Assembly: GCA_000002445.1 (NCBI GenBank)
Contig: CM000207.1
Span: forward strand, 2,336,001-2,400,000
Origin: Trypanosoma brucei
Lineage: Eukaryota
Length of the DNA: 64,000 nt
Direction of reading: 5' to 3'
This document shows positions 3,501-63,885 of the stretch, one piece after another. The stretch's first letter is position 1, and every line of letters begins with the position of its first letter. A model generated the notes under the pieces. The model had not been told where the DNA came from, made no database searches, and saw nothing but the letters and a program-made list of their open reading frames with translations. The translations under genes and the position numbers were made by a program.

Positions 3501-6500
3501 TGGGATGTCTGCCGGCGATGCGATGTCTCGGATATGAGGGACGCGAGTGTGTGGCTGACGGATGTTCTTTTGTGCTGCGCTCGCAGCCGAAGTCTGGAGA
3601 TTTTGCACATACTTACAAGGGAATTTCGCGTCACGTGGGGCAGGAAGTTCTTTCCTACAGCGGAACCACTGTTGATGGCAGTATTAAATAGTGACGCGGA
3701 GATGGCATTGTTTCTAATGACACACGGCGCTGTCCCCACGGCATTTGGCCCCATTCCCAAAATGCACGACAACGTTAAAGCTAGTTTCCTGCGGGAGGAG
3801 AGACGTGCTGTTTCCCCCTTATGGCTAGCTGCCCGCCTTGGGGAGACCGCCATCCTGCAGCAGTTGCTACAGTCAACGGATCTTCTGTGCCATGAAGCAA
3901 CGCTGGACAATTCCACCCAGTGTGGTGACATACTCCAGGCACTTATCGATGGAGCGACGCGGCGGGTCACGAAGGAGCGCGACGCGGGCATGGCTCGAAC
4001 TATCTTTATGCTGAAGCGTGCTGGATATTTGGCCCTAACTCCCGACGTTGTGAGGTGCGCCGCCAGAAAGGGGTTGGTACAAGTGGTGAATGCCCTCGTG
4101 GATTGTTACGGCCCCGATCCGTTTGTGGAAGACCTCAAGTGTGGAGGCTTGTGTGCCATACATTTTATGGTCGCCAACCCGGAGCTTTGTGGAACGCTGC
4201 GTTCGTTGCTTGTTGCGGGACGCAGCACAGCAACTGAAACTGTGGGGGGAAGTGTGTCCCTCGCCTCCGCTATGCTTGCGACACCATTCAGGGTTAACCC
4301 TGTCGATTACGCTCTGAGACATGGTTGCGCAGAGGGGGCTCTGCTTCTTCTTTGTTTAGGGCTTTACGGCAGCGGAACTGTGTTTGCAAAGCGAGCCCGC
4401 ACGTTGTCAGTGGTCATACGCCTCGCAGTGCAAAGGAGGTGCACAACGGGGTGGAGCGGCTACACAGCTTTGCACGCAGCGATTGAGATGCAGTGCCACA
4501 GTCTGGCGAAGACTATGGCTTGCGAAATGGCAGCGATTCATGGTCCCAACAGTGGCCCCTATGCAGAGATGACTATCAAAAATGATGACGCACCATCTCT
4601 TCACGCATTCATGGCGTTCCACTTGCGTGAAGCACACTTTGGAACGCTTCTTTCGTCCGGCGTGCCTCCAGTAGTGGATATCTCATCTCCCTGCGATATC
4701 CCGTACATTGTATGGAGCCCGCATGCGTCTGAGGGGCGCTTCAGGGAAGCCGTGCGGGAATCTGCCACGAGAGAGGGGCTGGAGCAGCCGCTAGATTTAA
4801 TGAAAGAGAGTCTCCGCGTTGAGGTGCGCCAGCACATGTTGTCCTACAACGAGAACATCTTTTTTCGGAGCCGATCGTTCGCAGTGACGGCACTGACACC
4901 GATGGCGTGCGCTGTTGCCGCGGGAAAGTTGTCGTGGGTGCAGTTATTTTCCAGTTGCGGAGTTTCCTTGACGAACGACAGTTCCATTATTGCCGCAAAG
5001 TATTCTGCAGTTTCGACGCAGGGACGAATTAAGGCTCCGCCGGTGTACAAACTCGTCGATATGAGAGACTCTAGGAAACGGAAGGCACCGAAATCGGTGA
5101 GAAGGAAGCACGTTTGCTCCAAGGACACTGGCGCGTGGCTGCTTACTGCCTACGTCCACAATCGTTGCCACATCTCCCCCATCATGCTTAGCATGGCAAT
5201 TGTCGTTGAGTGTGTTCGGTCGGGTGCCGTGGAACAGAGACTGCTTCAGCAGCTACAAATAATTCGCTATCTTCTTGGATCCGATGAATGTCCACTACGA
5301 GAGGAGGTGAATCTGTTGGCCATCGTAGCTGCAGAACTGCAACTGTGGGGGTTGCTTGAGGACACTGTGGTTACATTGGAGCGGTGCCGTGCCGTATTTG
5401 ACCCCATTAGCGAAGGGGATATACCGCCCTTTATGCACAATGTCGTTGGGAGTGCCCACCACGTAATGCATAAGGTGGCAAGAGTTGCACCACGGGAAAT
5501 AATTTTACTGGTTGCAAGAAACTCATCTTTCGTTCACGTCGAAGAGTTGTGCGACGCGAAGGGAAGGACGGCGCTTTACCACGCCCTGTATCACCCGACT
5601 CCGGCTGCTGTTGACACATTGCTGTCTCTTAATGTTTCGGTGAGTAAGCGCTGCTGCTCTGGGACGGGGCGTACTCCATTAATGGTTGCAAGTAAACTTG
5701 GGAAGCTCGGTCATGCGGAGAGGCTAATGCGAAAAGAGGTGTTGGACCTTGAGGACAACTACGGCAACACAGCCCTCCTGCTAGCTGCGGAAGGGGGTCA
5801 CAAACAAGTAGTGGAGTATCTTCTCGCGCAGGGAAGCTCGCCATCAACCAAAAATGCTAAAGGGATGACGGCGGTGATGGTGGCGGCGCTCGCGGGTCAT
5901 GATAGCCTCGCTGTTCCGATGGTTGAGAGATTCTCCGGCATATCGGACTTGTTTACTCCGCACACCACCATACTGCACTGCGCCGCTGTGGGAGGCGCCT
6001 GGGGTGTTGCAACCACAGTTGTGAGTTGTCTGGCGCAGGCAGACCCCTTAGCAGTGGACCACTTTGGATACACAGCCCTATTTCTCGCCCATGCATTTGG
6101 AAATGCGCGTGTCCTGCGCACGCTGCTTGGCGCTGTTCTCCACAAGGGTATTACCGTTCCCTCTTCTTTCGTCCGGGAGCGTCAGATAATCTCACGCTCA
6201 TCGGAACTTGTGCCGCGAGGGTGGCTTAAGGGAACCTTGTATTTGGCTGAAGCGGTGCTAGGCAACGGGCGGAAGGGCTCATCATCATCATTATCATCAT
6301 CACACTATGGTCCCATGCGCTCCAGTGAGACATTGTACGGTCATCGCACGTCCATCCGTCGTAATGATGTCCCTTTGCTTCTTTGGTGTGTACGGAACAA
6401 CAACACACTCGGTGTCCGTGTCTTGGGGGAGATCAATGTTGGTGATAATTGCTACGCTCTTCATGAGGCCGCCAGAAGTGGAAATGTGGAAATGGTAAAA

Positions 6501-56269: not shown

Positions 56270-57446
56270 GAGGTTGCAACTCCATGAATTGTGATCCCAA
56301 CCATTCCACTTGTCTCCACACAGTTATGTGCACATACAAGTGAGGCAGCAAACATCCTTTCATATTAACCTTATTTTCTATCGATAATTATATATTTTTT
56401 AAAATTTCCTTTATATTTTCACTTTTATTATTCTTTTTACTTTACTTTACTTTTCCTTTACTGTGTTATCTTTCGAATATCTGTTGTAGCTTTTGTCCTT
56501 TATTTTCTTAATTTTTTTTAATTGTCGGGAAAGTCTCGTAATTAATAAAAATAAGTTTTTTATTACCTTTTTTTTTAATTATTTTATTCATGTATTGCAC
56601 TGAGGTGATTGCGTGTAAGCATGGCCACCTATGCGTTACCATTGTAAAACCGTTTTGCTAAAATCTATCATTTCTACGCATCCATAATGTCCTATTGTAT
56701 GCGTAAAGCTAACTGATTCTGAGGGTTTTTATTTTATCATGAAGCAAAACTGTTACACTGTGGGTTTACCTTCACATATCTCTCTCCCATTACTCATTAC
56801 ACTTATTTTATGTTGTATTCTCTCCCTTTTTATTTCATATCTCTATATTTTATGTTACTGTCAGTAGGTTGTATCGTAATAGTGTAGGATACCCTAAATG
56901 CTCAATACATGTGCTCTTACTGATTCCATCAGATATTGATATTATCGTGTCTAATGAAATGACTATTGGAAGTTTGGGTGTGTGCTATTGCATTGCCTCT
57001 CTGCTTTGTAATTATAATATTTGATTTGTTCTTGCATCGTGTTATGTTTTTATGTTTCTTTTTTGTTTATAGGATAGTATTATTTTTTGTTATGATGTTG
57101 AAATTTCGTACTTCAAAAAAAATATTAGTGGTGTAATATCCTTTCCTTTGTCGGTTATTTAGTTTTTCTCTTGACACCTTGTTTCTATTGTTATTGACCT
57201 TTTTTTCCCCCATTCTTTTAATCATTTACTTTCTTCTTTTTTAATATATGTGTACTTTATAGTTTCTTTATGTTCTAATATTGCTTGTTCGTGTTATTGT
57301 GTTGGTGCGAAAATAATTCATTTTTTTTTTTGTCGTTGTTTCATATATCCTTGTGCATATTTTTCTTTGGCTTCTCTTTTGTAGTAATAAGTGTGGAAGG
57401 TGGAGGGCGGAGGGAACGAGTGAGTTTTAATACAAATTAGTCGTAG

Positions 57447-58487
57447 ATGCACTCATGTTGGATTGGTTCGCTGTTACTACTAGTGGGACTTATGTTTTTT
57501 AGTATTGTTTGCCGAGCAAATGGAACGGAAGTGAAGCCGCTGGAAGAAAGTGCAGAGGATATTTGTGCGGCCATGAAGTCCCTTAATACCGTAAATAACA
57601 CTGTACAAAATATTATTACCACCATACGCAATCACAAGGCGAAATTGATACGCTATCTCCAGGATGTAGAGACGGCATTTGAAAGGACGAGTAGCGCAGC
57701 CGCTGCAGCGAAACAATACGGGGGAACCTTCCGAACTGCGTCGGTGGCATCAAAAATTGCGAATGACGCAATGTCCAACTCCACGCGGGCCATGTTGGAT
57801 GCTGAAACGAGTCACAACACGACTCTTATTATTGAGGCGGCGGCGAATATTGAAGCACAGAGCGCGAGAGACAACGCAACTGCCGCCGCTGTGGCACTTC
57901 AGGCGATATGGAAAACGACAGTTGGCACTGCCAGACTTCAAGCGAACCATACGGATTGTGTGTATACACCAGCTGATCAGATGTTGACGTCCCAGAAGCT
58001 GAATGAGCACAAAGAGAAGCTGGTGGTAACAGATAGCAAATATAATGATGAACACAAGGAGTTGAAGGAGCTTTGGGCGCGGAGTTATCTGAAGCTCTTC
58101 CTCCCGCTCGACCAGCTCCATATGTTATTGCAAAAGTTGGAATGGGATGTTGCCACAACGTCAGAGATGGAAACCACTGCAGAAAAGGCAGCTGATGCAG
58201 CAGTAGCGGCGCAAGAGGATGTTGAGAAGGCGGCAGAGTTGGCGGCGGAGAGTGCGACAGAATCTGTACGGGCAAAACGATACTCTGATCGTGTCGCAAG
58301 AGGGAATATGAAATTTAAAACCATCGCAGGATTTCATGAGGAACCTCTACCCGAGGTCGTCCCTCGTCCCGGGGCAAAGGCATCTGCCGCGTCCGATCCA
58401 TTGGAAAATGAAGACGGCGCTTTTTATGTGTCCAGGGGAATAATGCCGCTCAGTCAAGCTTTTTTCGTAATTGCGTTTACCATATAA
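57447..58487 (+). CDS. Distinct alanine-rich, N-glycosylation-site-rich predicted GPI-anchored surface protein (346 aa), not a member of the array consensus
   Basis: N-terminal signal peptide MHSCWIGSLLLLVGLMFFSIVCRANG. The body is alanine-rich and predicted helical (SSAAAAAKQYGG, AAANIEAQSARDNATAAAVALQAIW, AEKAADAAVAAQEDVEKAAELAAESATE). At least 7 N-x-S/T sequons. The short C-terminal hydrophobic tail (IMPLSQAFFVIAFTI) is typical of a GPI-attachment signal. It sits between the BARP array and the adenylate cyclase. Confidence 0.65.
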   Translation: MHSCWIGSLLLLVGLMFFSIVCRANGTEVKPLEESAEDICAAMKSLNTVNNTVQNIITTIRNHKAKLIRYLQDVETAFERTSSAAAAAKQYGGTFRTASVASKIANDAMSNSTRAMLDAETSHNTTLIIEAAANIEAQSARDNATAAAVALQAIWKTTVGTARLQANHTDCVYTPADQMLTSQKLNEHKEKLVVTDSKYNDEHKELKELWARSYLKLFLPLDQLHMLLQKLEWDVATTSEMETTAEKAADAAVAAQEDVEKAAELAAESATESVRAKRYSDRVARGNMKFKTIAGFHEEPLPEVVPRPGAKASAASDPLENEDGAFYVSRGIMPLSQAFFVIAFTI

Positions 58488-60010
58488 CCGCGATTGGCAA
58501 ACTCGAAGCATAGATATATTTTAATTTCCATTCATGGATGCATATGGACCCGTTCGCAAAATGCTGTGAGGCGGTTTTGCCGAATCTTCACTCTCTGCCT
58601 GTTCGTGTGTTGCTCGAGTGAGCCATTCAGTTCTACGTCTGTTGCGCTTGCTTTTGGTTTGGGTTTTGGATTGGTGGTATAGAATGTTGTGTTGTTAAGG
58701 TTGTTCGTTTTGTTGGTGTCTTTGCTTTGTCTTGCTTCGCTTGTCCCTCTTCCACACCAATTCTTGAAGCGGTTGTGTGTATAAAGGAGGAAGGAGACAG
58801 TTGGGTGTTTGAATTTTCCGACCCCGCACATTGGTCGAATGGCTAGCATGTTTCATTCTTTCGCAGTTCGATGCATATTCCCATATAGATATATTTTTAA
58901 TATACCAACTTGTGTGTTTGTGAGTGATTTTTTTTGTTTTGCTTTTGCTTTTGTTCACTCGCGTTTGCGTCCTCATAGTTGGTAATATCGGTGGGCCTTG
59001 CCATTCACTTCTTCCCTCATTAGACGATTGGTTATCAGGTAGAAGCTATGCTCCATCCTCTTCCCCCTCCCCTCTGTGTGCTTTAAAATAATTCGAAAGT
59101 TCATCGATTTATCACACATTTCTCGAAGGGAACTCGTCTTTGCTTCACTCTGTTCAACAATACAACAATTTTTGTCGGAACAGAAACTCATTATTGCTTT
59201 TCGCTTTACCCTTCATTATTTATAGATGCGCAATGACAAATAAACAAGATTTATGTAGTTAAACATAGTGGGCACCTTTCACTCACAAGCACTCATGCGT
59301 GAGAGTAAATTATAAAAGAAAGATGTTGTCATTTGATGGATTTAAATCTTGTCTGGTCGTGAAAACGTGAAAGAATTCACGCAACTTTGCATTCCTTTGC
59401 AGTCGCTTTTTATCGCTGACGGCGCGCATTCTTTACTTTGTGGTCGCTTCTGTTTCATGCCGATTAGTCTGGTGAACAAATGGAAGTGCTATGCCCGAAT
59501 TTATTAACATAATAATTATTGACTATATGATGCACCGTGATAGGGTTGTGTCGCATTCGGTATTGTTGGATATGAAATGAATTTTTGAACTTGACCACGT
59601 GGGTGGGGGTGGGGGGACGCGAAAATATAGTGGCAGTGAGCGCTGCATGGAGCACTTTGGCAGCATTCTGTCGGGTAAGATCTGCATAAACGCGTATACA
59701 TATGCCTGTAAATATACAAATGCGCACGCACGTAATTGGTTTTCGTTAGATGCAATACAAAGTATTTAGCCGCTCACTTGGTTTCACCCTTTTTTGTGTG
59801 CGTGTTTTGCTTTTGATGTCGCTGTCTCTTTTAGTGGGATGCACCTATATATAGATAGATAAAGATATTATGTTTATGTATTGTGTTTTGTTGCTTCATT
59901 ACTTGCGAGACCACGTATAATGTATATAAGCATATACGCAGAGAAGCTGCTTTGGGGAAGGTGACGGATGCTTGGCAAGGTGAATATCTGTTGAAAAACA
60001 AGTGGAAACC

Positions 60011-60047
60011 CCCTGCTTTTATTTCTTTTCTCCTTGTTTCTTGTCGT
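60011..60047 (+). promoter_or_regulatory. Polypyrimidine tract upstream of adenylate cyclase ORF (candidate splice-acceptor signal)
   Basis: cctgcttttatttcttttctccttgtttcttgtcgttg lies about 110 nt upstream of the ATG at 60157, followed by AG dinucleotides. Confidence 0.4.
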
Positions 60048-60156
60048 TGAATAGATTTCTGCAAGTTACCGTTAATATTCGGTGACTGAGGTGTTCAAGA
60101 ACTGCCATTTTTAAAGGAAAAGGAAAGGAAAACGTCGGTGCACAAATATAAACAAC

Positions 60157-63100
60157 ATGAGTTGTTTAAGAAGCATCTCGCTGTCGGTACCTCCGCACGC
60201 CCTTTCGACGTTCAGCAGAACGGGAATGTTATATGTTATGTATGTCTTGCTTCTTCTCATGCCCTATCCGCTGCAAGTGCACGGCGCTCCAGCAAACATC
60301 AACGTTAAGGTTTTACTTTGTACCTGGAACACGCGTGTACCAAAAATTTTCACCACCGCAGTTAACGCTGGTTTCAATGCGTCAATGGAATCACGCAATT
60401 GGACCATAGCCGACAGGGTGAAGGTGCAGGTAGTTCAATCCAGTACGAGTCACAAAACCCCGGAAGAATTTATCAAAGACGAGTTGAGTAAGGAAACAGA
60501 CAAGAGTGGCATCACGATTGTGTTTGGCCCCGTAGGTGACGACACTACGCTGGATTCTATTTCTGAGTTGCAGAAGCACGAGGTGGTTGCGTTCGGTCCC
60601 ATGACTGGATCTGGAGAGGTTCGGCGGTGGGTTCGTGAGCTCTATTTTCTACGCCCAAGCCCAACAATCGAAACCATGGTGCTCATTCGACATGCATTGG
60701 GTCATCTAGGTGTATTGCGACTGGGTTTCATGTATCTGCAGGGCCATCATTATGGAGAGAAAGAGTATGAGGTGGCATTGCGGGTAATGGAAGAAATGGG
60801 CTACCAACTTTGCGGTGTCTTTGTTGTGTTAAATGTTAACGATAAACCCGCACCCGACAAGGAATTCAACGCAGTGTTTGAGCGTTTTGCAGCTACTAAG
60901 CCACAGGCTGTGCTTTTGTTTGGTGCTCCCAAATCCGACACGGGGAGGTTCCTGAGGAAGTTGGTGGCGGACCGACGCACCTCTGGGGCCTACGTCCTCG
61001 CTCCCTCTGGGGCGCAGGTGTTTCTGGAACTTATGTGGAAACGAGTTCTGCTTGACAGTCAAGTCTCCCCCTTCCCCGGGAAGCTGCTCATTGCTGGCAC
61101 CAACCCACTTGCGAAGAACGAACAGTACGTGGCCATAAAACGCTTTCAAGAGGTGATGCGAGAGTATCTGAAGACTCACACCAGCGAAACGGGCATCACG
61201 GACCCGAACTACTTCTTGAAACATGACACAGATGGTGAAATGATGGTGTACGGCTGGGCTGCTGGCGAGGTGCTGTCGCAGGCGCTAAGCGTCCCTGAGT
61301 GGCTCAAGGACAGGACAACATTCATGGACTCGCTGTATAATCAGCGCCGATACGTTATTGCTGACTTTGTAATTGGCGACTTCGGTGGTGATTGCGAAGG
61401 GGAAGCAGCCAAGCAGGGTGCCGTCTGTTATTGCAACCAAGGTGGAAATGTGGTGTACGTGAGAGAGGTTGAGGATGATTTCAGCATGCAAACGCCGAAA
61501 GATGGCACGGTGGGACTGGCCGCACTGCGCTGCAATGCTGACTCGGTAACGCTACATTCCCCATTGAATGGGCTTGTTATTTTCTTTGGTGACAACACAA
61601 TTGCCGTGAAAGCGACCGCGGCGTGGCTTGTTGGCGCCCTCCGCCACGATACCGGGTCACTAGAGTATTCAGGCCAACTCTTTCTGCACGCATTTGGCAC
61701 CACCACATCTGACTCTGCGAAGGCCCTGAAGGAAGAGAAGAAAAAACGAACTGTCACCGCCGTGTTCGGCATTGTGACGAAAGCGCTTATGAAAATGACC
61801 AACACGCTGTTCATTGACCCAATAACAATTGAACCCCAGTTGAACAAGTTCCGGAGGCATGTGATTCACCTCTCCCCAACGGTGGAGCAGCAAATCTACG
61901 TGCTAACACGCTACCTCTCCAACAACAGTGGTAAAGAGGCAAATGCCATTGTTTGCGCTGCAGAAGCGCATGGTATAATGAAGGTTATCCGAAAGTCCTT
62001 GGAAAAGTGGGGAGGTTCGCTGAATATCTCACTGGTGCGCAGGAGGGGTGCCGCGCTTACCGGCCACCTTCCCACCAGCGGGGCAGTGTTTGTTTTCGGT
62101 ATATCTGCCGCTGACGTTGATGTGATTGAGAGGCACCTCGCTGCGCATAGTGAACTTCGTGTGCTTGTCCTTTTCTCCGAGGTGGCATTGCTTTATGAGA
62201 AGTTTGTCACGGCCTTCAACGGCAGCGCCGCGGCCCCTCGCCTCGTGTTTGCCACCAACCTTCCACACTGGTATGACAATGAAACATCGTCACCAACAAT
62301 CCTGAAGTTTCACGCCACAGTGGAGAGCCGAGAAAAGTGGACGCCAATGACACTAATGGGCTTCGTTACCGGGACGCTGATGAGTCTGGCGCTCTTGCGC
62401 GTGGAACGGGTAAACATGAGCACGCTTGCAAACTTCTTCTTCGTTGAATCCTCCGTAAATGTCGACGACATGCGGTATGGCGTCTTTAGCGACTCGGAGT
62501 GTGGTTCGGGGGAAACCGGATATGGCGATATGTGCCGCACCAACTATGGGGCGACGCGCATTAGTGTGTGGTCCATGTCGCGTGTATTTAATGCTTCAAT
62601 CGAGCTGCTCGCCGAGCCCGTGACACCTTCCTTGAAGTTTTTATTGGAGTGGGACGGGCTTACCAGGGCTCAGCTGGTAGGAATCATTGTCGGTTCCACC
62701 CTCTTCGTGATGCTGCTTGCTGCGCTCGGTGTTTTTATGCACATCACCTTACGTGATGCCCGCGATAATGTGAGTGCACCTATGGACCCGACGGACCCCG
62801 TGACGCTCATCTTCACGGATATTGAAAACAGCACGTCGCAGTGGGCCTCACATCCCAATGTCATGGCCGATGCCGTTGCCGCGCATCACTCTCTGATACG
62901 GACACTAATTGGGAACTATGATTGCTACGAAGTGAAGACCATAGGTGACTCTTTCATGATTGCGAGCAAGAGTGCCACGGCGGCAGTGAGGCTTGCCCGC
63001 GATTTGCAGCGCTGCTTTCTAAACTACCGTTGGGGTACGGACAGCATCGACAACTTCTACCGTGCTGAGGAAAAACAAGTGGCTGAGTTGAACAGCAAGG

Positions 63101-63885
63101 CCGAACCCCCGAGCGCCCAACTGGACCCCGAAGTGTACAGGAAACTGTGGAATGGCCTCCGCATCCGTGCTGGGATCCACACCGGGTTGTGTGATATTCG
63201 GTACGACGAGGTGACGAAAGGATATGACTATTACGGTCAAACGGCAAACATGGCTGCCCGCACGGAGAGCATTGCGAATGGTGGACAAGTGCTTCTGACA
63301 CGTGCAACGTACTTCTCTCTAAGTACAGCGGAACGTGAGCAACTTGATGTGACTGCACTTGGTTCCGTGCCACTGCGGGGTGTACCCGAACCCGTGGAAA
63401 TATATCAACTGGATGCTGTTCCTGGGCGAACCTTTGCGCCGCTGCGTCTAGATCACGAGGCATATGTGGCGGATGAGAGCAGTGATGTTTCCCATACGAC
63501 CTTCAACGACTGCATGTCAATTTCCTCTCAACTAGGAGCAGGTGGGGAAAGTGTTTCCAATGTTTTGCACGCCCTACTCGGCACATTCACAATTGTTCAG
63601 CGGCAGAAGGAATTGACGGCAATATGTGAGCGCTGGCGTGTCCCTCTTCCACCCTGGAAGGAAGCCGTGTGGAATGATGAATATTATCAGGAAGCTATAC
63701 ATCGCCTTGCAGTTAAGGTGGGTCACATTGTCGATGTCGCCGCAGTCGAGCGTGTTGGACGCCCTACGGAATCATCGGACAGCTCCTCCGTCATTTTGAT
63801 TTCTAATCCTGCGGTGGATCAATCCACGGAAGATTTGGAAGGCGATGCTTTTGAATGCGGTTGGGAGGAAAAGGGGAAGCAGTAG
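60157..63885 (+). CDS. GRESAG4: Receptor-type adenylate cyclase (GRESAG4-like; ESAG4 family)
   Basis: 1242 aa. Large N-terminal extracellular domain preceded by a hydrophobic signal peptide, single TM helix LVGIIVGSTLFVMLLAALGVFMHI, then a class III cyclase catalytic domain: PVTLIFTDIENSTSQW, VKTIGDSFMIASKS, GIHTGLCDIRYD, YYGQTANMAARTESIANGGQVLLT. This is the canonical trypanosome receptor adenylate cyclase architecture. Confidence 0.9.
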   Translation: MSCLRSISLSVPPHALSTFSRTGMLYVMYVLLLLMPYPLQVHGAPANINVKVLLCTWNTRVPKIFTTAVNAGFNASMESRNWTIADRVKVQVVQSSTSHKTPEEFIKDELSKETDKSGITIVFGPVGDDTTLDSISELQKHEVVAFGPMTGSGEVRRWVRELYFLRPSPTIETMVLIRHALGHLGVLRLGFMYLQGHHYGEKEYEVALRVMEEMGYQLCGVFVVLNVNDKPAPDKEFNAVFERFAATKPQAVLLFGAPKSDTGRFLRKLVADRRTSGAYVLAPSGAQVFLELMWKRVLLDSQVSPFPGKLLIAGTNPLAKNEQYVAIKRFQEVMREYLKTHTSETGITDPNYFLKHDTDGEMMVYGWAAGEVLSQALSVPEWLKDRTTFMDSLYNQRRYVIADFVIGDFGGDCEGEAAKQGAVCYCNQGGNVVYVREVEDDFSMQTPKDGTVGLAALRCNADSVTLHSPLNGLVIFFGDNTIAVKATAAWLVGALRHDTGSLEYSGQLFLHAFGTTTSDSAKALKEEKKKRTVTAVFGIVTKALMKMTNTLFIDPITIEPQLNKFRRHVIHLSPTVEQQIYVLTRYLSNNSGKEANAIVCAAEAHGIMKVIRKSLEKWGGSLNISLVRRRGAALTGHLPTSGAVFVFGISAADVDVIERHLAAHSELRVLVLFSEVALLYEKFVTAFNGSAAAPRLVFATNLPHWYDNETSSPTILKFHATVESREKWTPMTLMGFVTGTLMSLALLRVERVNMSTLANFFFVESSVNVDDMRYGVFSDSECGSGETGYGDMCRTNYGATRISVWSMSRVFNASIELLAEPVTPSLKFLLEWDGLTRAQLVGIIVGSTLFVMLLAALGVFMHITLRDARDNVSAPMDPTDPVTLIFTDIENSTSQWASHPNVMADAVAAHHSLIRTLIGNYDCYEVKTIGDSFMIASKSATAAVRLARDLQRCFLNYRWGTDSIDNFYRAEEKQVAELNSKAEPPSAQLDPEVYRKLWNGLRIRAGIHTGLCDIRYDEVTKGYDYYGQTANMAARTESIANGGQVLLTRATYFSLSTAEREQLDVTALGSVPLRGVPEPVEIYQLDAVPGRTFAPLRLDHEAYVADESSDVSHTTFNDCMSISSQLGAGGESVSNVLHALLGTFTIVQRQKELTAICERWRVPLPPWKEAVWNDEYYQEAIHRLAVKVGHIVDVAAVERVGRPTESSDSSSVILISNPAVDQSTEDLEGDAFECGWEEKGKQ

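Follow-up and report, generated by a model that had tools for sequence, protein, structure and literature searches.

The open reading frame at positions 57447-58487 (+ strand) of the 64-kb stretch of Trypanosoma brucei DNA analysed here (the window) is a real and functional gene, present in a single copy at the 3' edge of the BARP array, and its product, Tb927.9.15650, is predicted by structural modelling to be a three-helix-bundle surface protein with the architecture of HpHbR, GARP, MISP and the factor H receptor (FHR). The explanation that we favour, and that we regard as moderately probable, is a low-abundance, GPI-anchored three-helix-bundle protein of the cell surface that is receptor- or adhesin-like and does not form part of the bulk coat. 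The gene adds a member to a known structural class and leaves the understanding of that class unchanged.

The frame encodes 346 aa plus a stop, and an in-frame TAG lies immediately 5' of its ATG. The deduced protein is an exact match to XP_827702.1 / Tb09.244.2390 of T. b. brucei TREU927, so that the frame described in an earlier, sequence-only reading of this DNA is real; the database annotation of this entry is "hypothetical / T. brucei spp.-specific". From the flanking BARP gene Tb927.9.15640, the flanking ACP6 gene Tb927.9.15660 and the 'hypothetical protein' entry, we infer that Tb09.244.2390 is Tb927.9.15650. A spurious open reading frame was ruled out because the gene has a conserved syntenic T. 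congolense orthologue and measurable mRNA. No paralogue of the protein was found by tblastn in the whole 64-kb window.

The features of the locus and of the protein are collected in Table 1. Homology to the BARP array, as determined by blastn, ends at 57027, and the region from there to the ATG and all downstream sequence are unique. The gene therefore has its own flanks, as had been proposed, with the refinement that the segment ending at 57027 is still a standard BARP 3' spacer: across ~770 bp it shares 88-92% identity with the spacers that follow 12 other BARP genes, and it matches the one behind the ninth BARP gene in part (470 bp). The first AG after the polypyrimidine tracts of the unique upstream region, at 57383-57384, is a candidate trans-splice acceptor, and splicing at this position, following the usual trypanosome polyY-AG rule, would yield a 5' UTR of ~62 nt with no upstream ATG. 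The gene shares a polycistron with the BARP array, directly downstream of it, and its position between a surface-coat array and a receptor adenylate cyclase was confirmed, the downstream gene being an adenylate cyclase by Pfam.

Table 1. Features in and around the Tb927.9.15650 gene (positions in the window)
Feature	Position	Strand	Basis
Last BARP inter-gene spacer (BARP 3' flank)	56270-57027	+	blastn; ends array homology, outside the new gene
Unique upstream region with long polypyrimidine tracts	57028-57446	+	sequence reading; blastn
CDS Tb09.244.2390 (by assignment Tb927.9.15650)	57447-58487	+	ORF and exact protein match
Hydrophobic leader, residues 1-24; predicted signal-peptidase cut after C22-R23-A24	57447-57518	+	hydropathy and conservation
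Predicted helix 1, residues 29-91, with conserved C40 and sequon N50	57531-57719	+	AF2, pLDDT 82-97
Predicted helix 2, residues 96-162, with sequons N111, N124 and N143	57732-57932	+	AF2
Predicted helix 2-3 connector, residues 163-203: loop (C171, N167), then short helix 182-199	57933-58055	+	AF2
Predicted helix 3, residues 204-293	58056-58325	+	AF2
Disordered Pro- and acidic-rich linker, residues 294-322	58326-58412	+	pLDDT <50, no secondary structure
Candidate GPI-addition signal, residues 323-346	58413-58484	+	hydropathy, conservation, Big-PI/FragAnchor
Unique 3' UTR and intergenic sequence before the ACP6 gene	58488-60156	+	blastn
Receptor adenylate cyclase ACP6 (Tb927.9.15660)	60157-63885		Pfam; name from literature

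In a phmmer search of 1.84 billion representative proteins, the query and one T. congolense protein (35% identity, E 5.6e-38) were the only matches, and the 5.8 billion proteins of a word-indexed search, queried both with the single sequence and with a profile, yielded T. brucei and T. congolense clusters alone. T. congolense has two copies of the gene, and a bona fide GARP gene stands ~2 kb upstream of each, the products of these neighbours being 93-94% identical to the crystallised GARP and matching PF16731 (1e-33). These copies point to purifying selection on the gene. The linkage to the BARP/GARP array is therefore ancestral, and the "T. brucei spp.-specific" annotation is wrong, given these syntenic T. 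congolense orthologues. No match to the adenylate cyclase was obtained by tblastn on the two short T. congolense contigs. Invariant between the two species are C40, C171, a DNATAA sequon, a C-R-A triplet behind the N-terminal hydrophobic core and an S-R-G triplet near the C-terminus.

Alanine accounts for 15.9% of the residues, in agreement with the description of the protein as alanine-rich. The N-terminal hydrophobic stretch covers residues 3-24, with Kyte-Doolittle values >2 over residues 3-22, and the invariant C22, R23 and A24 stand ahead of the predicted mature N-terminus. A cleavable signal peptide had been claimed; the hydrophobic leader is present, and its cleavage is suggested by the conserved C-R-A. 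SignalP 4.0, however, made no signal-peptide call for Tb927.9.15650 in Savage et al. 2012, where 1 TM segment was counted. The N-X-S/T sequons number six (N25, N50, N111, N124, N143 and N167), one fewer than the minimum of seven given in the sequence-only reading, and among the three in helix 2 only N143 (DNATAA) is kept in T. congolense. The linker is shorter in T. congolense by a 12-residue deletion.

The only other strongly hydrophobic stretch in the hydropathy profile is formed by the last ~15 residues, as the short hydrophobic C-terminal tail of the sequence-only reading implied. This tail (IMPLSQAFFVIAFTI) is short, moderately hydrophobic (Kyte-Doolittle ~1.6-1.85) and too short for a TM helix, and it is preceded by small residues and by the invariant S329, R330 and G331. 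Big-PI and FragAnchor are both GPI-positive for the protein (Savage et al. 2012, Table S6), which bears out the proposed GPI signal with two published algorithms, and the same study includes Tb927.9.15650, in its 'lower likelihood' table, among the putative N-glycoproteins with a GPI anchor. Membrane attachment by a C-terminal GPI signal or TM helix, as in this class of bundle proteins, is thus predicted here in the form of a GPI signal, and the omega site would be D323 (23-residue signal) or S329 of S-R-G (17-residue signal). No localisation or proteomic record for Tb927.9.15650 was found in the literature, nor was the gene found in the supplementary text of a spatial-proteomics paper or of the other papers, an absence that is weak evidence.

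AF2 was run on a very shallow alignment of 5 sequences from two distinct lineages (Neff 1.5) and gave a model with pLDDT 76 and pTM 0.63, in which 138 residues reach a pLDDT of at least 90; two of the five models were confident. The model obtained from the single sequence was poor (pLDDT 51), and the long helices were present even there, so that the helical body proposed from the sequence is found in both kinds of model. In the alignment-based model, three long helices run up, down and up to form an elongated bundle that bears a small head. Helix 1 is strongly amphipathic (z = 4.3 versus shuffles), and the last ~25 residues of helix 3 reach past helices 1 and 2 as a stalk. When this model was used in Foldseek, the top 9 of 350,542 chains were bundle proteins of the HpHbR/Fam50 group, with HpHbR as the best match and VSG structures ranking below the group; it should be noted that AF2 training included HpHbR and GARP structures, so that a pull toward those folds is possible. 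The sequence-only reading had proposed an unrecognised member of the three-helix-bundle superfamily: membership is supported by AF2 and Foldseek, and 'unrecognised' applies only in part, given the GPI listing in Savage 2012. No paper stating the fold or the T. congolense orthologues of Tb927.9.15650 was found in the literature; these orthologues and the ancestral array linkage are new here, whereas the GPI-anchor prediction was already known from the 2012 screen.

Conservation is distributed unevenly over this model. Identity to the T. congolense protein is 56% in residues 182-199 versus 35% overall, and the first third of helix 3 (204-235) is 50% conserved; besides this peak at residues 182-235, identity is raised in residues 31-51 and around residue 141. 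By the predicted helix topology these segments share one end of the bundle, and the connector 163-203 would form a membrane-distal head at this end, so that it is in the predicted head that the T. brucei and T. congolense proteins are most alike.

The origin of the gene is a separate matter, on which we can be only tentative. A very divergent Fam50 (BARP/GARP/CESP/MISP) paralogue, duplicated at the edge of the ancestral array, is possible at somewhat less than even chances and is compatible with the receptor-like explanation. T. brucei has the gene immediately behind BARP, T. congolense behind GARP, and in both species the protein contains counterparts of two Fam50 patterns, C40-x5-L-x2-V for C-x5-L-x2-[LI] and C171-x8-LTSQKL (C-x8-LTSRAL in T. 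congolense) for C-x6/7-V[TN]xxxL, its cysteines being spaced by 131 residues versus 113-121 in Fam50. The second pattern resembles the defining feature of Fam50 according to Jackson 2013, a ubiquitous cysteine followed by VTxxSL 'with slight variations'. When the mature protein was shuffled 200,000 times, both loosened patterns occurred in order in only 12 cases, a count that is post hoc because the regexes were relaxed after the Tb927.9.15650 protein had been seen. Against this origin, the absence of alignable similarity to the 14 array genes, noted from the start, was confirmed: the best BLASTP E value was 0.34, and hhalign gave a probability of 0.7% against the BARP profile and of 1.5%, in the wrong register, against a BARP+GARP+FHR+MISP profile. 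For this wider Fam50 set, the GARP, FHR and MISP sequences were rebuilt from HMMER alignments, the BARP-profile search having returned BARPs only. PF16731, which scores BARP at 229 bits and the T. congolense GARP-type neighbour at 117 bits, matches neither the T. brucei nor the T. congolense protein even at E <= 1; the remaining Pfam matches of both proteins are sub-threshold noise (Clusterin, Spo12, DUF948, ISG65-75 at E 0.02). HMMs of the two Fam50 cysteine-motif blocks missed the sites in Tb927.9.15650, and phmmer and family-profile searches of PDB sequences retrieved nothing relevant, whereas the BARP profile detects GARP, FHR and MISP there at 3e-27 to 2e-5. Moreover, the best structural match, HpHbR, is non-Fam50 by sequence. 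A relationship to A-type VSGs, suggested by the name that UniProt gives to the T. equiperdum orthologue, is far less probable still and is effectively refuted: A0A1G4IB67 and A0A3L6KVR9 carry 'Trypanosome variant surface glycoprotein (A-type)' as their UniRef name, but PF00913 gives no match at E <= 1, no VSG is among the matches of the homology searches or of the PDB sequence search, VSG structures rank below the HpHbR/Fam50 group, and the 346-aa protein is without VSG lobes and C-terminal domain.

Two further readings concern what the protein does at the cell surface and whether it is anchored there. A coat component that is abundant, specific to epimastigotes and regulated together with the BARP array would fit the shared polycistron and the place directly downstream of the array, the BARP-like composition with a GPI signal and an mRNA level slightly higher in the salivary gland (86 RPM) than in the proventriculus (50 RPM) in published RNA-seq. 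However, this last difference is not significant (padj 0.25), and the same data give 62 RPM already in stumpy bloodstream forms and 19 RPM in the day-3 midgut, whereas each BARP rises from ~110-130 RPM in the proventriculus to ~4,800-5,400 RPM in the salivary gland, roughly 60-fold above Tb927.9.15650. The suggestion of stage-specific expression like that of the neighbours consequently finds no support in these data, with 19-86 RPM in all sampled stages against ~5,000 RPM for BARP in the salivary gland. The unique 5' and 3' flanks are not BARP UTRs, and the saliva-proteome proteins that the MISP paper names in its main text do not include the Tb927.9.15650 product. With low mRNA in all stages and unique flanks, a BARP-like coat component was rejected as very improbable. 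It is also rather unlikely, if less so, that the protein is not GPI-anchored at the plasma membrane; with an uncleaved signal anchor or a failed GPI tail, it would be secreted or would stay in the ER, the lysosome or the flagellar pocket. The negative SignalP 4.0 result and the recorded TM segment, the short tail broken by S, Q and T, the polar TRTTSL at the end of the T. congolense tail and the 'lower likelihood' placement point in this direction. On the other side, two GPI predictors agree, and the proteins of both species have the small-residue C-R-A behind the hydrophobic core and the same S-R-G before the tail. The SignalP column is also blank for the Fam50 member Tb11.02.2370 and for Tb927.5.4010 in the same table, and it therefore says little for such proteins. 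Anchoring at both ends would, in addition, be sterically awkward, because the N- and C-termini lie at opposite ends of an up-down-up bundle.

The receptor-like reading of Tb927.9.15650 draws on several known systems. TcHpHbR, the T. congolense haptoglobin-haemoglobin receptor (PDB 4e40 / 5jdo), is held by a GPI anchor and expressed in the insect stage, and its three helices form an elongated bundle that has a small head, as predicted here. It differs in its locus, shares only 17-19% identity with Tb927.9.15650 in the structural alignment and is without sequence or profile similarity to it; 4e40, 4x0j and 5hu6 were not recovered by phmmer or profile searches of PDB sequences, so that the likeness is structural only. 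The T. brucei factor H receptor (PDB 6xz6, 'GARP domain-containing protein') is reportedly a low-abundance bundle receptor of stumpy and fly stages, an expression profile that Tb927.9.15650 resembles. In FHR, unlike in the putative receptor Tb927.9.15650, a GARP domain can be recognised (BARP profile E 3.6e-10). BARP and GARP (PF16731; GARP PDB 2y44) are the immediate genomic neighbours of the lineage in both species, are Ala-rich and GPI-anchored, as is predicted for Tb927.9.15650, and have analogous cysteine positions and an analogous VTxxSL-like motif. By contrast, Tb927.9.15650 is ~90 residues longer, has a disordered linker that most BARPs lack, is single-copy where BARP forms a 14-gene array, and is neither stage-restricted nor near the salivary-gland mRNA level of BARP. 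MISP360 (Tb927.7.360, PDB 5vtl, Fam50), also listed in the 2012 GPI screen (Savage 2012), resembles it in being an N-glycoprotein with a triple-helical bundle, an unstructured C-terminal extension and a GPI signal. Nevertheless, MISP is detectable with the BARP profile (E 2e-5) and Tb927.9.15650 is not, and the MISPs are a five-gene chromosome 7 family strongly up in salivary-gland forms, whereas Tb927.9.15650 is single-copy and low throughout. No sequence relationship was seen to ISG65 / ISG75, type I transmembrane proteins found in bloodstream forms, or to VSG N-terminal domains, which are larger, dimeric or trimeric, and variant.

According to the favoured explanation, the Tb927.9.15650 product would enter the ER by its N-terminal leader, which would then be cleaved, could be N-glycosylated at up to six sites and would exchange its C-terminal 17-23 residues for a GPI anchor. 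The mature protein of ~300 residues would form a bundle of ~9-10 nm, estimated from the lengths of its three helices, with a small head to which the helix 2-3 connector and the N-terminal end of helix 1 contribute and which a C40-C171 disulfide probably holds together; a short helical stalk and a flexible ~30-residue linker would lead to the anchor. The low mRNA in stumpy and all fly stages and the conservation of the head end lead us to propose a low-abundance, invariant surface protein that may bind a ligand or substrate through its membrane-distal head, as a receptor or adhesin. In this scheme the surface location and the orientation of the bundle are presumed, and the receptor function is suggested by analogy and by abundance.

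A wider proposal, which we consider unlikely, is that Tb927.9.15650 represents an ancient, sequence-orphan lineage of the BARP/GARP-HpHbR group that has stayed at the array edge since before the T. brucei/T. congolense split, as a low-copy transmission receptor whose conserved head binds a tsetse or mammalian ligand. If true, it would have a role in transmission (stumpy to fly, fly to mammal) analogous to that of the factor H receptor, of HpHbR or of a C3bBb-binding bundle. African trypanosomes have used three-helix-bundle surface proteins as the scaffold of their receptors for host ligands, the known examples binding haptoglobin-haemoglobin, factor H and C3b, and a 2026 preprint added the C3bBb convertase to these ligands; every member that is still uncharacterised is therefore a candidate, both as a receptor and as an invariant antigen. 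In Tb927.9.15650, the conserved predicted membrane-distal head points to where a ligand would bind and offers a target for mutagenesis and binding screens.

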